From: a virus
Taxonomy: Duplodnaviria > Heunggongvirae > Uroviricota > Caudoviricetes
Direction: 5' to 3' (one strand)
DNA: 37,633 nucleotides
IMG/VR virus record: IMGVR_UViG_2939177367_000002
Below, piece after piece: positions 1,136-13,729 of the stretch. The notes under the pieces are model-generated. The model was not told the DNA's origin, ran no database searches, and saw only the letters and a program-made list of their open reading frames with translations. The position numbers and the translations under genes were made by a program. Position 1 is the stretch's first letter. Every line of letters starts with the position of its first letter.

Positions 1136-2812
1136 CTAAGCAACATGTAGTTCATCGTTGGCGGAAGTGGCTGCTTTGCGCTCCTGCTCAATAGCTAGAG
1201 ACTCTCTATATTCTTTCGCCTCTGCAAACATTGTCCAGTGGGCGTTGATGTTCATGTCTTCAATAACTGATTTGATTTCTTTTAAATTTACGTTAAAAAA
1301 CTCTTTTCGTGAGTTAATTTTATTGACCTGCTTTTCGTTGAAAACTTTATGCAGATGGTTTTCTAATGATGGTGCATCATCACTATAAATCATCGCATGA
1401 ACATCGAACGAAAAAGGAACACTAGCATCTCCGAGTTCACGAACACGATCAAGTGGTTCAAGGCGGCGTGTCATTCCAATTTTATATACATCTTCGCCAA
1501 ATGAACCAATATTACTAATGATATAGACGTGGCCTGATCTGGTTTGTTGAGCCATAGAAATAGCTCGTTGATTTTTAGCTTCAGCTTCTTCATATTTTAA
1601 CTGTAGTTCAGCTATTTTTTGCTCTAAAGCTAAGCGTTGTTCTTCATTTGCAAGCATAAGTTCTTTCGTTGCTTTATTTATAGCTTGCTGAATAGCTTTT
1701 TCTTCTTTTTCAGCTTCTTTTATCGCTTTTTCATATTCTCTACGAGCTCTTTCCTCTTCACGAAGCTGTTCTTTAATCCTTCTTTGCTCTTCTTTTTCTT
1801 CGAGCATAATTTCATTAACTGCTACACCCCATTTTAGCTCGTTGAGTCTTGCCTGAAGATAGATGTCACTTATTTTTGCGGACCTAAAGGCAGAGCCATT
1901 GTAATTTACTAGTTGAAATGCATCTTTTATTTCTTGGGAAAGTTTTCCAAAATTGTTGTGTTTGACTTTTGATAAAATACTGTCAACTCTTCCATTGAAG
2001 GCATCCAAAACAAAGTTTATGGCAGTATTACGCCTGTTTTGCTCAACATAATCACACGAAGCAGCTTTATTAGTTTTTATTAATGATTTGGTTAACTCTC
2101 TGGCTTTTTGTAATTCCTTGCCTGCATCTGTAAATTCATAATTTTCTGCCAGCTCATCAAGTACACTACGGTTAGGGATGATCCATTCATCACCATAACC
2201 TTCAATTTTATTTTTCATTGATTTTGCAACTGCTTCATATTTTTCTGCAAACTCTTTAGCTTCATATGCTGAACCAGCAATCTCCTTTGCTCTTTCTTCT
2301 GCATCAGAAATAATTTTTACTGCATTGTCATTAGCATTTGAGATTAGCTCATTTGCTTTATTATTAGCATTATCAAGACGTTCTTTGGCTTTCAGGCGTG
2401 CATCGCGAGCGTCTTTGGTGATTGCTATAGCTTCGCTATTAGCGTTGCTTATTGTCATCTGAGCTTGATAATTTGCTTCGTTTACTGTTTTAGCCGCCTT
2501 AATTTGGGCTTCATCTATTTTTTGCTTGGCTATTGAGTCCGCATTTTTTATCTTATTCTCTGCATCCATTACTGCGCTGTGCAATTCTTCGTATTGCCAC
2601 AATGGTGCTGCTCGCCCTTCAAGCTCTGATAATTCTCGTACGGTCTGTGCTAGTTTTTCTTGATTTTCAATCAGTTGGTTAGAAAGGGCTATGTTGTTAG
2701 CTGTCAGGTTATCTATAGCCGCTTTGTGTTTTTTACTTTGTTTAAATAATATTACAGCTAGAACAGGGGCGAGAAATGCTAATAAGAGTATAACGATGGC
2801 AAATGAATTCAT
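1136..2812 (-). CDS. Cargo protein, 558 aa: N-terminal transmembrane helix, long coiled coil, C-terminal T5orf172/GIY-YIG-like domain (DUF4041-like central region)
   Basis: ATG at 2812 with AAGGAT ribosome-binding site only 20 bp after the repressor stop. N-terminus MNSFAIVILLLAFLAPVLAVILF is hydrophobic. C-terminus contains GHVYIISN...YKIGMTRR...FDVHAMIYS resembling the T5orf172 fold. Region is visibly AT-rich compared with flanking phage genes. Confidence 0.75.
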   Translation of the reverse strand: MNSFAIVILLLAFLAPVLAVILFKQSKKHKAAIDNLTANNIALSNQLIENQEKLAQTVRELSELEGRAAPLWQYEELHSAVMDAENKIKNADSIAKQKIDEAQIKAAKTVNEANYQAQMTISNANSEAIAITKDARDARLKAKERLDNANNKANELISNANDNAVKIISDAEERAKEIAGSAYEAKEFAEKYEAVAKSMKNKIEGYGDEWIIPNRSVLDELAENYEFTDAGKELQKARELTKSLIKTNKAASCDYVEQNRRNTAINFVLDAFNGRVDSILSKVKHNNFGKLSQEIKDAFQLVNYNGSAFRSAKISDIYLQARLNELKWGVAVNEIMLEEKEEQRRIKEQLREEERARREYEKAIKEAEKEEKAIQQAINKATKELMLANEEQRLALEQKIAELQLKYEEAEAKNQRAISMAQQTRSGHVYIISNIGSFGEDVYKIGMTRRLEPLDRVRELGDASVPFSFDVHAMIYSDDAPSLENHLHKVFNEKQVNKINSRKEFFNVNLKEIKSVIEDMNINAHWTMFAEAKEYRESLAIEQERKAATSANDELHVA

Positions 2813-2832: not shown

Positions 2833-3429
2833 TTAATTCGAGACTATTGTACTTCTTATACAAGCAACCACTTCAATATCAGAAAATGCACATTCAAAGC
2901 TATTCTCTGCTGTTGTAATTTTAATCATTCCTTTAGGAAGCCTTGTGATTTTTCGAATGGAATAGGTTCCGTCGATATTGATTAACCAGTTTCCATCAAG
3001 TACTTCAGAAAATTTTTGATCACAAATGTATGTGACGAGTCCATCCTGAACAACAATTGGTGATGAAAGGTTTGCAGGAAGAAATGATGAATCGAAGACA
3101 TATGAACCGTCTTCAATCATTTTGCCTGCGGCAAGGCGAAACTTAACAAGCTCTTCTGTAGCTGCTGTCAGCGAGCTTTGCTTAAGGCCTTGTCCGGTAG
3201 TTAACCATTTGAGGGAGGTTCCTGTTTCAAGAGCACATTGGATTATCCAGTCAGCAGGAAATGTATCCCGCAAATACCTGTTCGCTAGTGTGCTTTTTGA
3301 TACTTCCAAGTGATCAGCTAAAGCCTGTCGTGTCGTAAAGCCATAGGCTTCGACTAATCGCTCAATCGCAGCCTTACCACCTTTATTGGGATTTATTTTG
3401 ATCTCACTTGGGTACTTTGATGTTGACAT
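2833..3429 (-). CDS. cI: CI-type immunity repressor (phage 186 CI-like), 198 aa
   Basis: ATG at 3429. N-terminal helix-turn-helix-like segment (TTRQALADHLEVSKSTLANRYL). Position between int and a divergent Apl/CII-like operon matches the 186 switch region. Confidence 0.75.
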   Translation of the reverse strand: MSTSKYPSEIKINPNKGGKAAIERLVEAYGFTTRQALADHLEVSKSTLANRYLRDTFPADWIIQCALETGTSLKWLTTGQGLKQSSLTAATEELVKFRLAAGKMIEDGSYVFDSSFLPANLSSPIVVQDGLVTYICDQKFSEVLDGNWLINIDGTYSIRKITRLPKGMIKITTAENSFECAFSDIEVVACIRSTIVSN

Positions 3430-6433: not shown

Positions 6434-8844
6434 GTCATGCCGATATGAACAACTGCTGCGGCTTTAACGAGTCTGCCGCAGCATTCTCATGGAACAGCCC
6501 GAAAAAGGCCATTAACCCTTATCTGGACCCGGCGGAAGTTGCGCCGGTTTCTGCGCTTTCAAACCTGATCACTCTGTACGCTGCCGATAACGAGCAGGAA
6601 CAACTGCGCCGCGAGGCACTGAGTGATCAGGTCTGGGAGCGTTATTTCTTTAATGAATCCCGTGATCCTGTCCAGCGCGAAATGGAGCAGGATAAGCTAA
6701 TTAGCCGGGCAAAGCTGGCGCATGAGCAGCAGCGTTTTAATCCGGACATGGTCATTCTGGCGGATGTCAACGCCCAGCCTTCCCATATCAGCAAGCCGCT
6801 GATGCAACGTATTGAATACTTCAGCAGCCTGGGCAGGCCAAAGGCTTATTCCCGCTATTTACGTGAGACGATTAAGCCATGTCTGGAACGACTGGAGCAT
6901 GTACGCGACAGTCAGCTATCTGCATCTTTTCGCTTTATGGCAAGCCATGAAGGGCTGGACGGCCTGCTGATCTTGCCTGAAATGAGTCAGGATCAGGTGA
7001 AACGCCTGTCCACCCTGGTAGCTGCGCATATGAGTATGTGCCTTGATGCAGCTTGTGGTGATTTGTATGCCACCGATGACGTTAAGCCAGAAGAAATCCG
7101 CAAGACATGGGAAAGGGTGGCAGCAGAAACCCTGCGACTGGATGTCATCCCACCTGCGTTTGAGCAACTCCGCCGGAAAAGAAACCGCCGTAAACCCGTG
7201 CCCTATGAACTCATTCCGGGTTCGCTGGCGCGTATGTTGTGCGCCGACTGGTGGTATCGGAAATTATGGAAGATGCGTTGCGAATGGCGGGAAGAGCAGT
7301 TGCGCGCTGTCTGCCTGGTCAGCAAAAAAGCATCTCCCTATGTCAGCTATGAAGCTGTGATGCATAAACGTGAGCAGCGCCGTAAGTCGCTGGAGTTTTT
7401 TCGTTCTCATGAACTGGTGAACGAAGATGGCGACACGCTGGATATGGAAGACGTGGTAAACGCCAGCAGCAGCAACCCTGCGCATCGCCGCAATGAGATG
7501 ATGGCCTGTGTTAAAGGTCTGGAGCTTATCGCGGAAATGCGCGGTGACTGCGCCGTTTTCTACACCATCACCTGTCCGTCACGTTTCCATTCCACGCTAA
7601 ATAACGGCAGGCCCAACCCGACTTGGACAAATGCGACGGTAAGACAAAGCAGTGATTATCTGGTCGGCATGTTTGCTGCATTTCGTAAGGCGATGTACAA
7701 AGCCGGATTGCGCTGGTATGGCGTGCGGGTGGCTGAGCCGCATCATGACGGTACAGTTCACTGGCACCTGTTGTGTTTTATGCGCAAAAAAGATCGCCGC
7801 GCCATTACTGCTTTGTTGCGTAAGTTTGCCATTCGTGAAGACCGTGAGGAGCTGGGTAATAACACAGGACCACGCTTTAAGTCTGAGCTGATAAACCCGC
7901 GCAAAGGTACGCCAACAAGCTACATCGCGAAATACATCAGTAAGAACATTGACGGGCGTGGTCTGGCTGGCGAGATCAGCAAGGAAACGGGTAAATCCCT
8001 GCGTGATAACGCTGAATACGTTAATGCCTGGGCGTCTCTTCATCGTGTTCAGCAATTCCGCTTCTTTGGCATTCCGGGGCGTCAGGCTTACCGTGAACTG
8101 CGATTGCTGGCTGGTCAGGCGGCAAGGCAACAGGGGGACAAAAAAGCAGGTGCGGCGGTACTGGATAACCCACGCCTTGATGCCATCCTGGCTGCTGCTG
8201 ATGCTGGTTGTTTTGCCACCTACATCATGAAGCAGGGCGGCGTGCTGGTTCCCCGTAAATATCACCTCATCAGAACCGCTTATGAAATCAACGAAGAGCC
8301 GACCGCCTATGGCGATCACGGCATTCGTATTTATGGCATCTGGTCACCCATTGCAGAGGGCAAGATCTGCACTCATGCAGTGAAGTGGAAAATGGTTCGT
8401 AAAGCCGTTGACGTTCAGGAGGCGGCAGCCGACCAGGGCGCTTGCGCCCCTTGGACTCGTGGCAATAACTGTCCCCTTGCTGAAAATTTGTACCAACAAG
8501 GGAAAGACAAATCAGCTGATGGGGATACCAGAACGGATATTACCCGCATGGATGACAAGGAGTTGCACGATTACCTGCACAGTATGAACAAAAAAGAGCG
8601 CCGGGAACTGGCTGCAAGGTTACGCCTGGTGAAACCGAAACGGCGTAAAGACTACAAACAGCGAATTACAGACCATCAGCGACAGCAGCTCGTCTATGAA
8701 CTGAAGTCCAGAGGATTTGATGGCAGCGAGAAAGAGGTCGATTTACTCCTTCGCGGCGGCAGTATTCCGTCAGGAGCAGGCCTGCGTATCTTCTATCGGA
8801 ACCAGCGTTTGCAGGAAGATGATAAGTGGCGAAACCTGTATTAA
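6430..8844 (+). CDS. A: Rolling-circle replication initiator endonuclease (P2 gpA-like), 804 aa
   Basis: ATG at 6430 overlapping the upstream stop. Size, position and a paired-tyrosine segment ([11 protein letters not shown]) match the P2 A family. Confidence 0.9.
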
Positions 8845-8936
8845 TTACGCGGGTTAACAATTCGTGCTCTTAATAATACCAGGCATATCAGGCTGATGAA
8901 CGTAAAAAAACGTTTTACATCAGTAAGATTATTATA

Positions 8937-8956
8937 TACTGTAAATATAAACAGTG
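8937..8956. promoter_or_regulatory. LexA (SOS) box TACTGTAAATATAAACAGTG
   Basis: CTG-N10-CAG with AT-rich centre, close to the E. coli consensus TACTGTATATATATACAGTA; about 40 bp upstream of the 8997 start codon. Confidence 0.6.
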
Positions 8957-8996
8957 GTTATATTTACAGTATTGCTTTGGTGTCATAGGAGGAAAG

Positions 8997-9185
8997 ATGC
9001 AGGACTATTTTTTGGAGTCTTTGAAGCTCCAGCGCATTGATTTTTTTCTTAAGCTTGTAGCGGCTAGTGAGTGTAGTGATGAAGAGAAGGGGCTGGCTTT
9101 GCAGTGGGTTTCTGAACTAACAGATGAACTCATGGCAAAAATCAGAACCCACGAATACAACCGCTCAATGGATGTCATCAGTTGA
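8997..9185 (+). CDS. Small SOS-controlled protein, 62 aa; possibly the N-terminal module of a Tum-like antirepressor
   Basis: ATG at 8997 with AGGAGG ribosome-binding site directly downstream of the LexA box; followed 11 nt later by the DinI-like gene. Confidence 0.5.
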   Translation: MQDYFLESLKLQRIDFFLKLVAASECSDEEKGLALQWVSELTDELMAKIRTHEYNRSMDVIS

Positions 9186-9196
9186 GGTGACTTTTT

Positions 9197-9430
9197 ATGC
9201 GCATTGAAATAATGATCGATAAAGAGCAGAAGATTAGCCAGTCTACCCTGGACGCCCTTGAATCCGAGCTTTACCGCAATCTGCGTCCTCTGTATCCCAA
9301 AATGGTAATTCGTATCCGCAAAGGTAGCTCTAACGGTGTGGAACTGACCGGATTGCAACTGGACGAAGAAAGAAAACAAGTGATGAAAATTATGCAGAAG
9401 GTGTGGGAAGACGACAGCTGGCTGCATTAA
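9197..9430 (+). CDS. DinI-like protein, 77 aa
   Basis: ATG at 9197 with GAGGTGA ribosome-binding site. Translation MRIEIMIDK...IRIRKGSSNGVELTGL...VWEDDSWLH resembles the DinI family as I recall it. Confidence 0.7.
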   Translation: MRIEIMIDKEQKISQSTLDALESELYRNLRPLYPKMVIRIRKGSSNGVELTGLQLDEERKQVMKIMQKVWEDDSWLH

Positions 9431-9700
9431 GAAACGTTGCTGGCGTCTGAACTTGCTTCTGGCGTCAGCAAGGTTGAACAACGAGCTATGCGAGGCGTTA
9501 GTGTCAATTTGTTACCTTAACCACTATATATGCCAGGAAATTAACAGTTCTTAAGAAACAGCTTGCATGATCGAGCGCATTGAACTTAAGTTTAAGTAAC
9601 GCAATCAACAGATGATATTGTTGTCTAAATTTTAAAGATAATCTGTTGAGGTTGTAGGCGTCGGAGTGTAGACTTCCGCGCCATGTGAAAAGGGGGAGTT

Positions 9701-9916
9701 ATGTCAAGCATCGCCGCATTTAGCCTGGGTAACCCAGTTGAACGTCTGGCAAGGGTTCTTAAAGAGAACCAGGACAAACTCAATCTTAGTAAAGATGGTT
9801 TTGTGTCCGTAGACTTGTCTAACAAAAGAGCAATGGATGCCATCAAGGCACAGATGGATAAGCTTGAAGGCATCAAAACGAGCACTGTAAAAGAGAAAAC
9901 TAATAGAACCAGATAA
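9701..9916 (+). CDS. Hypothetical small soluble protein, 71 aa; first gene of a two-gene cargo operon
   Basis: ATG at 9701 with GGGGGAG upstream; its stop TAA overlaps the next ATG (TAATG at 9914..9918), implying translational coupling. Confidence 0.5.
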   Translation: MSSIAAFSLGNPVERLARVLKENQDKLNLSKDGFVSVDLSNKRAMDAIKAQMDKLEGIKTSTVKEKTNRTR

Positions 9917-10758
9917 TGGCAACATTACTTTTAGCAGTGATTTTGGTTAGTGGTTTTATTTATGTAAACCTATCACTTTCAACAAGATACCGATATAAGC
10001 GTTCCAACGGCTGGGACGCTTATTTTTTTGTGGCTGCCTGGGGTATCGTTTTTTTTCTCCTTGGCGGTTTTTTCACCTTTATTTTGAACGTCAGCGGAGG
10101 GTTTCGTTGGCTGGCTAATGCCTTGAATCTAACACCTGACAGTTTTAATGGCATGTTGTCTTCATCGAAAGACAAACTTCAAAGAATAAATGAAATCAAA
10201 CAGATAGCATGGGTTATGATTTCAATTGTCCTCGCTGCGATTTCAGGTTTTGGAAATAAGTTACGCACATCACGTGGAGATCGTCGCTGGGATGCCTTAG
10301 CTAAAGCTGTGGGTAATAACGCTTTCGAATCATTACTCATGGAAGCGTCCGCAAGACAGTTTCCGATCATAGCAACTCTGTCGTCTCGCAAAATCTATGT
10401 TGGTCTTGTTACTTGTCCGGCGTTAGAAAACGGGCTTTCAGAGCACCTTGAACTTCTCCCGATGTTAAGCGGATATCGGGATAAAGATGATCTAACGATT
10501 AGTATCACGACTAACTATCACCAACATTATCTTGATAGTGGTGTGATAAGTGGAATGTCTCGGCTTAATATCGAAGATTTCCGTGTGCTCATACCAAAAG
10601 ATGAGGTTGAAACAATTTCGTTTTTTGATACTGAGACATATAACAAATTTAAAGAAAATGAAGCCAGGGATAGAAAGAACTGTCGAAAGATTGATAGTAA
10701 AAGTGCATCTTCGCGCAGCAAGCGTGCAGCAGATGCTGAGTCAAATGATCGTGCATGA
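9916..10758 (+). CDS. Hypothetical membrane protein, 280 aa, three predicted transmembrane helices plus a ~170-aa charged C-terminal domain
   Basis: Hydrophobic segments LLLAVILVSGFIYVNL, YFFVAAWGIVFFLLGGFFTFIL and IAWVMISIVLAAISGFG; no family recognised. Confidence 0.6.
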   Translation: MATLLLAVILVSGFIYVNLSLSTRYRYKRSNGWDAYFFVAAWGIVFFLLGGFFTFILNVSGGFRWLANALNLTPDSFNGMLSSSKDKLQRINEIKQIAWVMISIVLAAISGFGNKLRTSRGDRRWDALAKAVGNNAFESLLMEASARQFPIIATLSSRKIYVGLVTCPALENGLSEHLELLPMLSGYRDKDDLTISITTNYHQHYLDSGVISGMSRLNIEDFRVLIPKDEVETISFFDTETYNKFKENEARDRKNCRKIDSKSASSRSKRAADAESNDRA

Positions 10759-10805
10759 CTATGCTGCATGAGATCGCATGATCGTTTGAGGATCGTTTTT
10801 GCTAG

Positions 10806-10830
10806 GGCCCGCCAGAACTGGCGGGCTTTC
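10806..10830 (+). terminator. Weak hairpin GGCCCGCC-AGAACT-GGCGGGC followed by TTTC
   Basis: Read directly; lies after the 280-aa gene and before the AT-rich promoter region of the 557-aa gene. Confidence 0.3.
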
Positions 10831-10995
10831 GCGTAGATCATGCACCTGCATGAAAACTACTACATAAAGCGGGCAGGCGTGGCGGGGATACGAGCGCGCG
10901 CAACAGTGTAACAATCTGGATCTAATGTGATATAGTTACTGTAAATATTATTAACTATTCTTATATGCATTATTAAATATTTTAATGGAGCGTTT

Positions 10996-12669
10996 ATGGA
11001 AAAATATCAAGATGAGGAATATGTAGATGATTTAACTGAGCGTGTTTTTCTCATTAAGCAACAACTGGAAGCGGGAAAACTAAAAATAGCTCATCATCTT
11101 GTAGAAGGTTTTATTGAAAGTTTTAAAAGAATAAGGCTGCGACAGGATGGTAAAGTTGACCCTTCTACTGTTGATGGCAGAATAAGGGCTATGGGAGCAG
11201 CGGTTAATCACTTTTTAGAAAGAGAAGATATAAAAAACAAATACTCTATTCAGGACTTGCAAAGTTCTTACTTTAATATTCTTTTTAGTAATTTTGGCGA
11301 GTTGTTTTATCTGATGAAAAAAACTAATGCAACGCCACATAAAGCATCAAGTTTTTTTTCTCAACAAGAAGAATATGTTAAGCAAATAGAAGATATTTTT
11401 CCTGAGTTATATAATCAGGTAATAGAGTTTTGGCAGGTAACATCCGATATTGGTGTAATACATTTGCAGGATGGTTCTCAGTTTAAAGCTAATTTTTCTG
11501 GTGACTTATTTCCTGCATTTGATGAGAATGCTGTCTCTATTGCAGGGTTGTATGTTGATACTATTTCACTTCCATGTCCTATATTAAGAGTCGGTCGTCT
11601 CTATGAAAAGTCAGATAAGGCTGAGTTTACAAGGATACTTCTGAAGCATGTCCTAACATGTATGACATATAAAGAAGTAGCGCTTGAAGATATAGAGCCA
11701 GCAATAGTATTAATTTTGCCGGATAGAAGAGATTTTGAAACTGAGAGCAAAAAAAATTTGATGAGTTTTTGTGAGCCTTATGCTCTGACTCATGCGCAAT
11801 ATCTCTATGATCGACGGTTCGAAAGCTACGATGAATTTCGAGATTTTAGTTATTCGATGAATGATATTGATGCTGTTCTTAAAAATATTAAGAGAGCAGA
11901 TAGACTTATTTTTGATACAGCATGGGGGCTAAATCCAAAAACTCAATTAGAAAAACTACTATCTGATAAAAAAAGAATATCACGTAATGTTGTTGGTGAT
12001 CATGCTGGAATGGAGGTTTTCCTTTCCTGCATTGGAAGAATGCCGCAAGCCTATTCAGCAAAATGTAATGCACAAGAACTTGGTAGTACTCCATATATAA
12101 ATGCAGACACATCTTGGCTCTATTATACTTGGCTTATTGAGTACGAATCTCTTAATTTTGATGTCAATGATATTGAACTAAAAAATTTGCATATGGTTCA
12201 TGCGTTATCTGCTGGTATGCAAGATGGTTTTTCATGGTTAGGAAATGTACCGGTCAATAAAATAATTGAGTTGAGACGTAACAAATTGATGGAGGATGTA
12301 AGATCCATCTTATCAAATGGTGTTGACTCTTTAATCAATTCTTCGGCAGAGAGCTTTTCGAGGACAACGCAAAAAGTAATTGATAATGTAGACCGGGCTT
12401 TTATTGAACATCAAAGGATTCTTGCAAAAGCCCAAAAAGAGAAATTGAGAATTTACGGACTAGATGTCCTACCATGTATCGCAAATGGTGCTATAGCAAT
12501 TGCTGGAGCGCTGACTGGCAATACTACTTTAACGGCGTTAAGTGCAGGCCTTGGAGTAATAGGTATTCCGAGTATTAGTGATATCAAATCTAAATTTAAG
12601 CAGAGGCAAGAGAAGCTTGATGCCTATCAACGTTCTGTTACAGGTATACTCTTTAGCCATAAATCTTAA
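10996..12669 (+). CDS. Hypothetical protein, 557 aa, very AT-rich, with a Gly/Ala-rich hydrophobic segment near the C-terminus; no recognisable family
   Basis: ATG at 10996 with GGAG upstream and an AT-rich promoter-like leader. Long uninterrupted frame with protein-like composition; C-terminal GAIAIAGALTG...ALSAGLGVIGIP; terminator hairpin downstream. Confidence 0.7.
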   Translation: MEKYQDEEYVDDLTERVFLIKQQLEAGKLKIAHHLVEGFIESFKRIRLRQDGKVDPSTVDGRIRAMGAAVNHFLEREDIKNKYSIQDLQSSYFNILFSNFGELFYLMKKTNATPHKASSFFSQQEEYVKQIEDIFPELYNQVIEFWQVTSDIGVIHLQDGSQFKANFSGDLFPAFDENAVSIAGLYVDTISLPCPILRVGRLYEKSDKAEFTRILLKHVLTCMTYKEVALEDIEPAIVLILPDRRDFETESKKNLMSFCEPYALTHAQYLYDRRFESYDEFRDFSYSMNDIDAVLKNIKRADRLIFDTAWGLNPKTQLEKLLSDKKRISRNVVGDHAGMEVFLSCIGRMPQAYSAKCNAQELGSTPYINADTSWLYYTWLIEYESLNFDVNDIELKNLHMVHALSAGMQDGFSWLGNVPVNKIIELRRNKLMEDVRSILSNGVDSLINSSAESFSRTTQKVIDNVDRAFIEHQRILAKAQKEKLRIYGLDVLPCIANGAIAIAGALTGNTTLTALSAGLGVIGIPSISDIKSKFKQRQEKLDAYQRSVTGILFSHKS

Positions 12670-12674
12670 TGTAG

Positions 12675-12704
12675 AGGGCCGAGGTATTCGGCCCTTAGTT
12701 TTAT
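12675..12704. terminator. Hairpin AGGGCCG-N7-CGGCCCT with flanking T-rich tract, between the 557-aa gene and portal gene Q
   Basis: Read directly; could terminate the plus-strand cargo gene and/or the convergent Q transcript. Confidence 0.4.
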
Positions 12705-13729
12705 ATGAAACTGTATGGCATGAATTTTATTATGTCATCTTTGAGCCATTTATTGAGTTCTTCTATTCTGTTTTGTAGCGGTATCAATTCATTACGCATA
12801 AAAACCTTACTAGCCTTCTCCACATCCCCAAATCCCCCAACATTATTCGGCATTATCCCCATCATTTGCGGCGGCACTCGGTGTGCTGCCATCATGTCAT
12901 CCCGGCTCACGTTCTTGATATTCAAAAATTCATCCTTTGCCGCGACTTCTGACAGAGGAATAATCTGAAGCCCGTCTTTTTTGCCGTTAGGCGAGTACAT
13001 AAACAGGTTGCGAAAGTTGCCTGGACCTTTGGCGCTTTTCATCGCGTTACGGAGATTGTTTACATCTTCCTGGTTCTGCGCGGCGTCGGTCATGTACATG
13101 ATGAAGCCTGCATGGCTGCCGTTGATGTAATACTTACGGCGGAACAGCGTGGCGGACTCGTTGAGCAGGGCTGACGGAATGGCAGAAAGATAACCGGGCA
13201 GGCCGTAGATCTCCTGGTTGATATCTGGTTCCATCAGATGAAAAATGCTGCCTTTCGTGAACTGATACGGTTGCGTGGTCATACCGTATTGCACAAACCA
13301 GTAGGTATCCAGGTCTAACCCGCGTCGGGTATATTTTGCCAGGGCAGGCTCAAGAGCGATAATTTCACCGAACCGGTTCGTGCGTTTCTCCAGATAGGCG
13401 TTACCAAATACCAGATAGTCCTGCACAAAACGTGAAAAAGCCTGCTGGCTGAGCAGCGGGTGAGGGATGTAGGTGCTGGTCAGAATGTTGCACTTTACTG
13501 CAATCGGGGAACTATGATGAACGGCAGCGCGGAAGGTGCGCGCCAGTCCGTCAAAGCTGACGGGCGGCTCATACCAGCGGTCCATCTGTACGCATTCCAC
13601 ATAATCCAGCAGTTCTCGGCGGTCCAGAACAGGAACGGGATCGCCGAAGCTGAATGCTTCGGCTGTAGTTTGACTTTTAAGCTGGATCTGTTTCGTCGCC
13701 GCAGCGCGGTTCTTCTTACTCTTTCCCAT
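12701..13729 (-). CDS. Q: Portal protein (P2 gpQ-like), about 342 aa
   Basis: ATG at 13727..13729 (reverse) overlapping the gpP stop (TGATG). Size and position next to the terminase match P2. The last ~25 codons are encoded by AT-rich DNA. Confidence 0.85.
   Translation of the reverse strand: MGKSKKNRAAATKQIQLKSQTTAEAFSFGDPVPVLDRRELLDYVECVQMDRWYEPPVSFDGLARTFRAAVHHSSPIAVKCNILTSTYIPHPLLSQQAFSRFVQDYLVFGNAYLEKRTNRFGEIIALEPALAKYTRRGLDLDTYWFVQYGMTTQPYQFTKGSIFHLMEPDINQEIYGLPGYLSAIPSALLNESATLFRRKYYINGSHAGFIMYMTDAAQNQEDVNNLRNAMKSAKGPGNFRNLFMYSPNGKKDGLQIIPLSEVAAKDEFLNIKNVSRDDMMAAHRVPPQMMGIMPNNVGGFGDVEKASKVFMRNELIPLQNRIEELNKWLKDDIIKFMPYSFI

Follow-up and report, generated by a model that had tools for sequence, protein, structure and literature searches.

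Two unrelated cargo cassettes separated by cos in the gpA-gpQ interval of a P2-like Escherichia coli prophage, with a possible role in phage exclusion

Two cassettes on either side of cos

The window analyzed here, the 37,633 nucleotides (nt) of IMG/VR record IMGVR_UViG_2939177367_000002, is a P2-like prophage, with a 100% match to NZ_CP016404.1 (Escherichia coli strain 210221272). Between its replication gene A and its portal gene Q lie three open reading frames (ORFs), encoding proteins of 71, 280 and 557 amino acids (aa). These almost certainly constitute two independent, unrelated cargo cassettes, separated by the phage cos site: one is formed by the 71-aa and 280-aa genes, from here on indicated as "the pair", the other by the 557-aa gene alone. 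The more inclusive statement, that the two unrelated cassettes both have a phage-exclusion or defence function, is made with moderate confidence. The interval corresponds to the gpA-gpQ interval of P2, a hotspot experimentally shown to hold anti-phage systems, which has been treated as a single one, located next to cos (Rousset et al. 2022, PMC9122126). Since the hotspot straddles cos, the two cassettes are neighbors in the integrated prophage. The hotspot and its logic are already known; its subdivision into two slots, whose cargo is exchanged independently on either side of cos, appears to be new.

A first-pass annotation, based on the letters of the window and on a list of its ORFs, had described the interval as a three-gene cargo island acquired by horizontal transfer, placed between gene A, with its SOS module, and Q, and AT-rich within a GC-rich backbone. 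Much of this description stands. The ORF listing gives the same three ORFs, on the same strand and at the same positions; the interval is flanked by gpA, a 62-aa ORF and a DinI homologue upstream, and by Q downstream; the GC content drops from 0.53–0.57 in gpA, P and the late genes to 0.41 (0.406) in the pair cassette and 0.35 in that of the 557-aa gene. The genes are indeed horizontally acquired cargo of the gpA-gpQ hotspot, located beside cos, in a position where occupancy varies between relatives. The idea of one island, or one system, has instead to be abandoned: a cos site, missed in the first pass, lies inside the interval, the cassettes assort independently and differ in GC content, both overall and at third codon positions (GC3: 0.35 for the pair, 0.25 for the 557-aa cassette), and a promoter-like site and a terminator of its own accompany the 557-aa gene.

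The spacer between the 280-aa and the 557-aa genes, 238 nt long, holds a block of normal GC content (Table 1), common to Fels-2, RE2010, SopEPhi, SEN8 and dozens of Klebsiella P2-like phages; its identity ranges from 85 to 95% in Fels-2, RE2010, SopEPhi and the Klebsiella phages. Window positions 10867–10888 align, with 20 identities out of 22, to the end junction of the circularized P2 genome, composed of AAGCGGGCG followed by GGCGAGGCGGGGA, the boundary between the two being the annotated cosL start. In the linear record of Salmonella phage SEN8, the last base is equivalent to window position 10875. The cohesive end reported in Table 1 is placed on the basis of these two observations. Because cos separates them, the pair and the 557-aa gene are found at opposite ends of the virion genome: the right arm has the pair as its last cargo, in the position of P2 tin/old, while the 557-aa gene comes first in the left arm. 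In P2 the interval from cos to Q is only 186 nt long. In a Klebsiella phage a 69-aa "hypothetical protein", QBQ71992.1, is annotated across the cos block (locus L020, 3018–3227; MK433578.1, 9099–9308); it is probably a spurious ORF call.

Cassette boundaries were defined by comparison with three loci, carrying the pair only (L003), the 557-aa gene only (L002), or the 557-aa gene together with a DUF2971 gene (L004). The content of the right-arm slot is replaced by 7 nt in the 557-only locus, and by a DUF2971 cassette (PADLOC candidate PDC-S31) in L004; the content of the left-arm slot is replaced by about 140 nt in the pair-only locus. The distribution of the three genes was evaluated in 5426 complete E. 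coli genomes, about 1274 of which match the region. The 71-aa and the 280-aa genes are present in 52 genomes each, at adjacent coordinates in every listed match, including two diverged copies (about 80–85% nucleotide identity); the 557-aa gene is present in 17. Both cassettes are found together in one genome only, that of the source strain, versus about 0.7 genomes (52 x 17 / 1274) expected by chance.

The cos-Q slot was surveyed in 42 P2-like loci from IMG/VR, featuring the pair and in which cos and portal could both be detected: 10 of them have an empty slot (<350 nt) and 32 a filled one (0.6–2.9 kb), with 24 distinct cargos among the latter. Known defence genes may be found in this slot: bSEFIR (E = 7e-103) in Klebsiella phage ST15-OXA48phi14.1, with a pair homologue across cos, and AbiU (E = 3e-112) in Fels-2. 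A relationship between the 557-aa protein and STM2723.1 of Fels-2 was considered and rejected (BLASTP E = 0.18), the Fels-2 protein being AbiU.

What had been a vague island is thus resolved into two cleanly delimited cassettes, each of which may be cloned and tested. In predictions based on guilt by association, a gene of one slot and a gene of the other should not be assigned to a common "system".

The 71-aa and 280-aa pair

The stop codon of the 71-aa gene overlaps the start codon of the 280-aa gene (GATAATGGC); this TAATG overlap, already noticed in the first pass, is also kept in the Klebsiella phage copy. Comparison of the two genes with their counterparts in the Klebsiella phage gives dN/dS values of 0.22 (71-aa gene) and 0.05 (280-aa gene), which indicate purifying selection on both. 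Both proteins match PHROGs of unknown function (9843 and 3630, respectively) and, given these matches and the dN/dS values, the two ORFs are regarded as real coding genes.

The 280-aa protein features three hydrophobic segments (residues 1–19, 39–57 and 94–112, by the Kyte-Doolittle scale), in agreement with the three N-terminal transmembrane (TM) helices anticipated in the first pass. Its C-terminal part is predicted, in an AlphaFold2 (AF2) model, as a cytoplasmic Sm/LSm/Hfq-like barrel (about 136–236), followed by a charged helix. Invariant residues in the pair include R29, G163, G173, S185-G186-Y187-R188 and F222. The modeled barrel has the layout of the Sm fold: an N-terminal helix, then a strongly bent, five-stranded antiparallel sheet. 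When 31 members of the 280-aa family were searched for Sm1/Sm2 or for the Pfam LSM and Hfq domains, no Pfam match was found in any of them. Matches of the pair proteins to PDR_CDR and DUF2207_C were discarded: all have E >0.01 and reflect the composition of the TM segments.

The family of the 280-aa protein includes 57 clusters, distributed across Enterobacterales, Aeromonas and Shewanella. Carriers of the pair among viral contigs are 237; 80 loci were retrieved from them, and all viral counts given here refer to these 80. In 78 of the 80 a homologous small ORF is located directly upstream of the gene coding for the TM/Sm-like protein: it ends between -4 and +13 nt from the start of the latter and matches the hidden Markov model (HMM) of the small partner with E <= 2.5e-8. 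Of the remaining two loci, one is interrupted by the end of its contig. Small partners from distant cassettes are 32–38% identical and have in common the motif NPxERLxxVLKENxxKLNLSKDGFVSVDL. For the Shewanella small partner, which was left out of the partner HMM, no homology with the 71-aa protein was detected by BLASTP (E = 8.6). The constant pairing, the shared motif, the dN/dS values and the conserved overlap indicate that the pair is an obligate unit: the coupling of a small partner with a membrane protein, proposed in the first pass, proved real both in viral loci and in E. coli, where the copies are adjacent.

In 58 of the viral loci the pair occupies the right arm of a P2-like phage, immediately ahead of cos; among these phages are some whose gpA is only 30–40% identical to that of the window. 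Two loci feature the pair between the K and I tail genes of lambda-like phages, and 20 do not match P2-like or lambda-like markers. In the two of these 20 which were examined (L073 and L088), the pair is found between the tail-tube/chaperone genes and the tape-measure gene of a siphovirus; relatives of the pair occupy the same position in an Aeromonas contig. In terms of the Juhala/Hendrix definition of morons, summarized in PMC3594210, the pair shows a deviant GC content, insertion between otherwise adjacent genes and presence in unrelated phage backgrounds. It is a widespread, obligate two-gene moron, with an architecture of three TM helices plus a predicted Sm-like domain, whose recognition appears to be new.

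Two further observations concern this family. In Pectobacterium chromosomes (L014/L015, 3372–4819) DinI, the small ORF and the TM/Sm-like protein are found beside an MscS-family channel gene, with no other phage genes; this group may be what is left of a P2-like right arm after domestication. Many records name members of the 71-aa family (P0179, P0183, P0184, P0189 and others) "multidrug ABC transporter ATPase": the name is implausible for proteins of about 70 aa with no ABC domain, and looks like a propagated mis-annotation.

The 557-aa protein

The 557-aa protein belongs to a family of 212 clusters at 90% identity and 756 at 50% identity, whose members are almost always about 550 aa long. 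Invariant blocks are found around residues 156–195, 217–225, 366–383 and 414–436; D188, C194, K217-H218, T372-S373-W374 and R427 are among the invariant residues. The AF2 model (predicted local distance difference test, pLDDT, 82; predicted template modeling score, pTM, 0.74) consists mainly of helices, plus a small core of four strands. The C-terminus is modeled as a 54-residue helix, a hydrophobic hairpin rich in Gly and Ala (488–523) and an amphipathic helix, so that the protein is composed of an N-terminal helical region, a DitB-like core (about 195–452) and a C-terminal part with the long helix and the hairpin.

The core was recognized by PADLOC: residues 195–452 match positions 95–344 of the 361 of the DitB profile, with E = 7e-10 (7.3e-10) and 36 bits. 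The same match is found in 22 out of 34 diverse members of the family (E <= 0.01) and in distant relatives. DitA, the partner of DitB in the Aditi system, was not matched by any of the three proteins of the interval (PADLOC, E <= 1). The first pass had not been able to assign the three proteins to any family. This still holds for Pfam and NCBIfam, where neither the 557-aa protein nor the other two have matches; it is only partly true in view of the remote but reproducible match of the 557-aa protein to DitB.

The 557-aa gene is a singleton in every context examined, and no conserved neighbor of the family gene was found in six contexts (the window, L007, L008, L016, L018 and L019). In Aquitalea, the homologue is carried by a Tn7-like element (TniQ/TniB), beside a Gabija-like pair, composed of an OLD-type ATPase and a UvrD helicase, and UvrD and HNH genes. 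An Aeromonas homologue is located in an integrase/AlpA islet. A different islet with a homologue holds an integrase, two DUF2971 genes and Ogr/Delta. One more homologue lies in an island with PAAR/DUF7079 and helix-turn-helix (HTH)-reverse-transcriptase (RVT_1) genes, in which phage genes are absent. In a Pantoea P2-like prophage, the homologue occupies the same interval between gpA and portal. As for the properties of a moron, the 557-aa gene has a GC content of 0.35, is inserted in place of about 140 nt of L003, and features candidate signals for both an own promoter and a terminator, as recognized by consensus scans only.

DUF2971 proteins (PDC-S31) accompany members of the 557-aa family twice, in settings unrelated to each other: a P2-like prophage of E. 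coli, where the right-arm slot is occupied in this way (L004, 4487–5605), and the integrase/Ogr-Delta islet (L018, 2575–4389). The co-occurrence could be either a coincidence or a recurrent association. Weak PADLOC matches to Avs1c, a small model, were found in the N-terminal helical region of 7 of the 34 family members (e.g. P0303, 309–374; best E 6e-4). The final 43 nt or so of Q (window 12701–12743) come with the 557-aa cassette, in a distinct version: in the Q/P region the pair-only locus L003 is about 89% identical to the window, while loci carrying the 557-aa gene are 99% identical through Q, which suggests joint transmission of the cassette and one particular allele of Q.

Two possibilities raised by relatives of unusual length were discarded. 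Relatives of 700–840 aa do not reveal a fused N-terminal domain: Pfam gives no match, and PADLOC only weak HTH and Avs1c ones. Relatives of about 350 aa are not split, DitB-sized genes next to DitA: they start in the middle of a domain and are truncated gene calls.

The proteins of the interval are listed in Tables S5A and S5B of Rousset et al.; the exact 557-aa protein is the curated single-gene "system 79" of Table S5B (49 loci, "2 TM", no domain; PMC9122126). It is therefore already catalogued as a candidate, and its link with DitB appears to be new. A literature search by the WP accessions of these proteins returned no paper.

Proposed functions and alternatives

Defence functions are inferred here from position and remote homology. 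An anti-phage function of the pair is slightly favored. The pair would be a phage-exclusion module acting at the inner membrane. Sm-like barrels typically form rings: the Sm-like domains of the 280-aa protein would oligomerize into a ring under the membrane, bringing together 18–21 TM helices; binding or regulation of this cytoplasmic ring would be the task of the small basic partner. On infection, either the membrane would be permeabilized (abortive infection) or entry of the genome would be blocked (superinfection exclusion).

For the 557-aa protein, a role as single-gene defence of the abortive-infection type is considered probable, because of its positional equivalence with AbiU and bSEFIR, the defence-island contexts of its homologues and the homology with DitB. 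The conserved DitB-like core would act as infection sensor, or as an enzyme, and the C-terminal hairpin would engage the membrane as the effector part. Should either cassette protect against phage, a new effector type would be added to the defence catalogue.

Binding of RNA or single-stranded DNA is a property of Sm, Hfq and WYL domains. In a bolder version, considered improbable, the pair would represent a new class of phage-exclusion effector, distributed as an obligate two-gene moron among P2-like phages, lambda-like phages and other siphoviruses: the ring of Sm-like barrels, on its 18–21 TM helices, would be a gated pore or a DNA-entry trap, able to sense phage nucleic acid and restrained by the small partner. 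In the same version the 557-aa protein would be a single-chain, membrane-targeting relative of DitB, from which the working of Aditi could be learned.

A number of results weigh against a defence role of the two cassettes. Nothing above noise was retrieved with the 71-aa and 280-aa proteins from Pfam, NCBIfam or PADLOC. The Sm-like assignment comes from one AF2 model, with a pTM of 0.57 and no sequence support: a sequence-profile search of the PDB with the 280-aa family gave 0 matches, and hhalign comparison of the family with E. coli Hfq a probability of 0.1%. A sigma-70 promoter of consensus level was not found upstream of the pair by consensus scan, and the pair may be read through from the LexA-box-controlled unit formed by orf62 and DinI. 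The pair is kept beside cos even in P2-like phages having a gpA only 30–40% identical: defence cargo is typically swapped faster, and the greater stability of the pair leaves room for a phage-intrinsic role. As to the 557-aa protein, the DitB match is weak and partial, its fold finds no match in PDB or BFVD, and Aditi itself is described with no recognized domain or mechanism. Neither cassette is among the systems tested by Rousset et al. (PMC9122126), and no protein of either one is found in the supplements searched for Vassallo 2022 and DefensePredictor.

The alternative which best survives is that the pair is a non-defence moron: an addiction module of toxin-antitoxin type, stabilizing the prophage, a lysogenic-conversion membrane protein with effects on host physiology, or a factor with a phage-intrinsic role, such as lysis timing, DNA ejection or packaging at the cos-proximal end. 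This is less likely, but a real possibility, since the pair has no homology to known defence proteins, is stably retained beside cos (in P2-like phages with gpA and portal only 30–60% identical), and no promoter was detected upstream of it. It would also agree with the insertions in late tail operons, where lytic expression is expected, with the remnant composed of DinI and the pair in Pectobacterium chromosomes lacking other phage genes, and with the non-defence cargo, partition systems and cytolethal distending toxin (CDT), reported for the same hotspot (PMC9122126). Yet the pair is found in only about 4% of E. coli P2-like loci, and is thus dispensable for the phage; its slot is that of tin/old, its positions in other phages mirror that of the exclusion moron gp15 of HK97, and its AT-rich composition is typical of morons. 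The phage-exclusion module remains the preferred reading of the pair.

A function of the 557-aa protein for the benefit of the phage, for instance as an accessory to packaging or as an anti-defence factor, encoded beside cos and the portal gene, is very unlikely. The location of the gene, immediately beside cos and Q, and the linkage of the cassette with a particular 3' end of Q would be in agreement with such a role. The gene, however, is carried by only 17 of the about 1274 E. coli genomes matching the region, and its homologues are found on a Tn7-like element by a Gabija-like pair, in integrase islets and in the PAAR/reverse-transcriptase island; AbiU and bSEFIR occupy the same slot elsewhere, and the homology with DitB also points to defence.

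Less likely still is genuine membership of the 557-aa protein in an Aditi system. The DitB match, covering residues 195–452 and shared by 22 of the 34 family members, could be taken to indicate this, but DitA is missing, and a conserved neighbor is not found in any of the six contexts; the match is limited to 36 bits, leaving about 195 extra residues at the N-terminus and about 105 at the C-terminus, and the relatives of about 350 aa are truncated gene calls rather than split genes. Because of the absence of DitA and of the partial match, the protein is not regarded as a member of Aditi; a stand-alone defence protein, related to DitB, is the reading retained.

Finally, it is hardly credible that the three genes form one three-component defence system (small partner, membrane effector and large sensor), as their adjacency, common orientation, AT-richness and location in a defence hotspot might suggest, along with the existence, in the same hotspot, of Rst_3HP, a validated system of three hypothetical proteins (PMC9122126): they occur together in one of 5426 genomes, about as expected by chance, while each cassette is found alone elsewhere; cos lies between cassettes of different GC content; the pair faces 24 different cos-Q cargos; and the 557-aa gene is provided with a separate promoter-like site and terminator and belongs to a family of singletons, also in non-phage islands. 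PADLOC gave no match to Rst_3HP homologues (version 2.0.0, in which the presence of Rst_3HP models is unconfirmed), and an exact-match search of Table S2 of Rousset et al., where the tested systems are reported, found no N-terminal peptide of any of the three proteins.

Coordinates, expression signals and neighboring genes

Table 1. Features of the gpA-gpQ interval. Positions refer to the window; the strand is reported where assigned.
Feature	Position	Strand	Description
Right-arm cargo slot, from DinI to the cos block	9502–10750	+	holds the two-gene cassette; GC 0.406
Inverted repeat, 15 nt	9605–9649		TCAACAGATGATATT / AAGATAATCTGTTGA; 50–95 nt upstream of the 71-aa start codon
71-aa ORF	9701–9916	+	ORF call; small, basic, soluble partner, with no TM segment; PHROG 9843
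280-aa ORF	9916–10758	+	inner-membrane protein; PHROG 3630
Conserved cos block (terminase recognition and cleavage region)	10751–10911		GC 0.547; from alignment to relatives
Predicted cohesive end, 19 nt	10876–10894		GGCGTGGCGGGGATACGAG
Promoter-like site	10908–10936	+	GTAACA-17-TATAGT, with extended -10 TG; 60 nt upstream of the 557-aa gene; consensus match only
Left-arm (cos-to-Q) cargo slot	10912–12743 (approximate)	+	holds the 557-aa cassette, including terminator and last ~43 nt of Q; GC 0.35
557-aa ORF	10996–12669	+	stand-alone protein
Candidate hairpin terminator, GC-rich	12674–12696		10-bp stem with 6 GC pairs; between the convergent 557-aa gene and Q

The inverted repeat upstream of the pair may be an operator or a structure of the 5' untranslated region. 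By consensus scan, no clear terminator is found between the pair and cos. The hairpin terminator downstream of the 557-aa gene is located at the place equivalent to that of the tQ terminator of P2. An Rfam scan of positions 8800–12900 gave nothing beyond a chance microRNA match.

Other signals were noticed nearby. A perfect LexA-box-like palindrome, CTGTAAATATAAACAG, is located at 8939–8954, about 45 nt upstream of the unit formed by the 62-aa ORF and DinI; the number of LexA-box-like matches in the whole window is not above chance, and this is one of only two perfect ones. An imperfect hairpin of 19 nt, with no T-run, is found at 9433–9475, just past the DinI stop codon. A terminator-like hairpin at 9995–10023 (12-bp stem, followed by TTTTTTGTGG) falls inside the 280-aa ORF, in the stretch coding for the loop between TM1 and TM2, and is probably a chance match.

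A known defence system is found elsewhere in the prophage. The 558-aa protein encoded at 1136–2812 (- strand), with DUF4041 and T5orf172/MUG113 domains, is identified by PADLOC as PD-Lambda-1 (E = 2e-120); its gene, with the integrase (1–1053) and the CI repressor (2833–3429) on either side, marks a second AT-rich slot (GC 0.38) in the same prophage which carries both cassettes.

Comparison with known systems

As for position, both cassettes have counterparts among known cargo. The slot of the pair, in the right arm before cos, is that of P2 tin/old; that of the 557-aa gene, between cos and Q, is the slot of AbiU in Fels-2 and of bSEFIR in the Klebsiella phage. The proteins encoded by tin/old, AbiU and bSEFIR are unrelated to those described here.

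The pair resembles two superinfection-exclusion morons carried by prophages, HK97 gp15 and P22 SieA, which are also inner-membrane proteins encoded by AT-rich accessory genes. Gene 15 of HK97 is an archetypal moron, located between the tail-tube and tape-measure genes, and its product is an inner-membrane superinfection-exclusion protein (PMC3594210); its position, between tail-tube/chaperone and tape-measure genes, is exactly that of some relatives of the pair. Sequence similarity to the pair is absent from both gp15 and SieA, and gp15 differs in being a single small protein, while the pair is composed of two genes and features a predicted cytoplasmic Sm-like domain of about 170 residues.

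RexAB of lambda, one of the two-component membrane modules for abortive infection, a kind of module invoked in the first pass, is similar in that a cytoplasmic partner and a polytopic inner-membrane protein are both carried by a prophage. RexB has four TM helices; the membrane protein of the pair has three, plus the Sm-like domain, and its partner is tiny (71 aa) and encoded upstream. Homology is not found either: RexAB is not matched by PADLOC, whose scan of the interval proteins gave no match other than DitB and LeoBC.

The closest relative of the 557-aa protein among described systems is DitB of Aditi (Millman et al. 2022; PDLC03827), about 70% of whose profile is aligned to the central 260 residues or so of the protein. 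The two are alike in having neither a known domain nor a known mechanism. They differ in their organization, DitB being accompanied by DitA, while the 557-aa protein is encoded by a single gene and carries an N-terminal extension and a C-terminal coiled helix with hairpin. Their sources also differ: Aditi comes from Firmicutes, while the 557-aa family is found in Proteobacteria and in P2-like phages. This family is the only link found here between phages of E. coli and the mechanistically opaque Aditi system.

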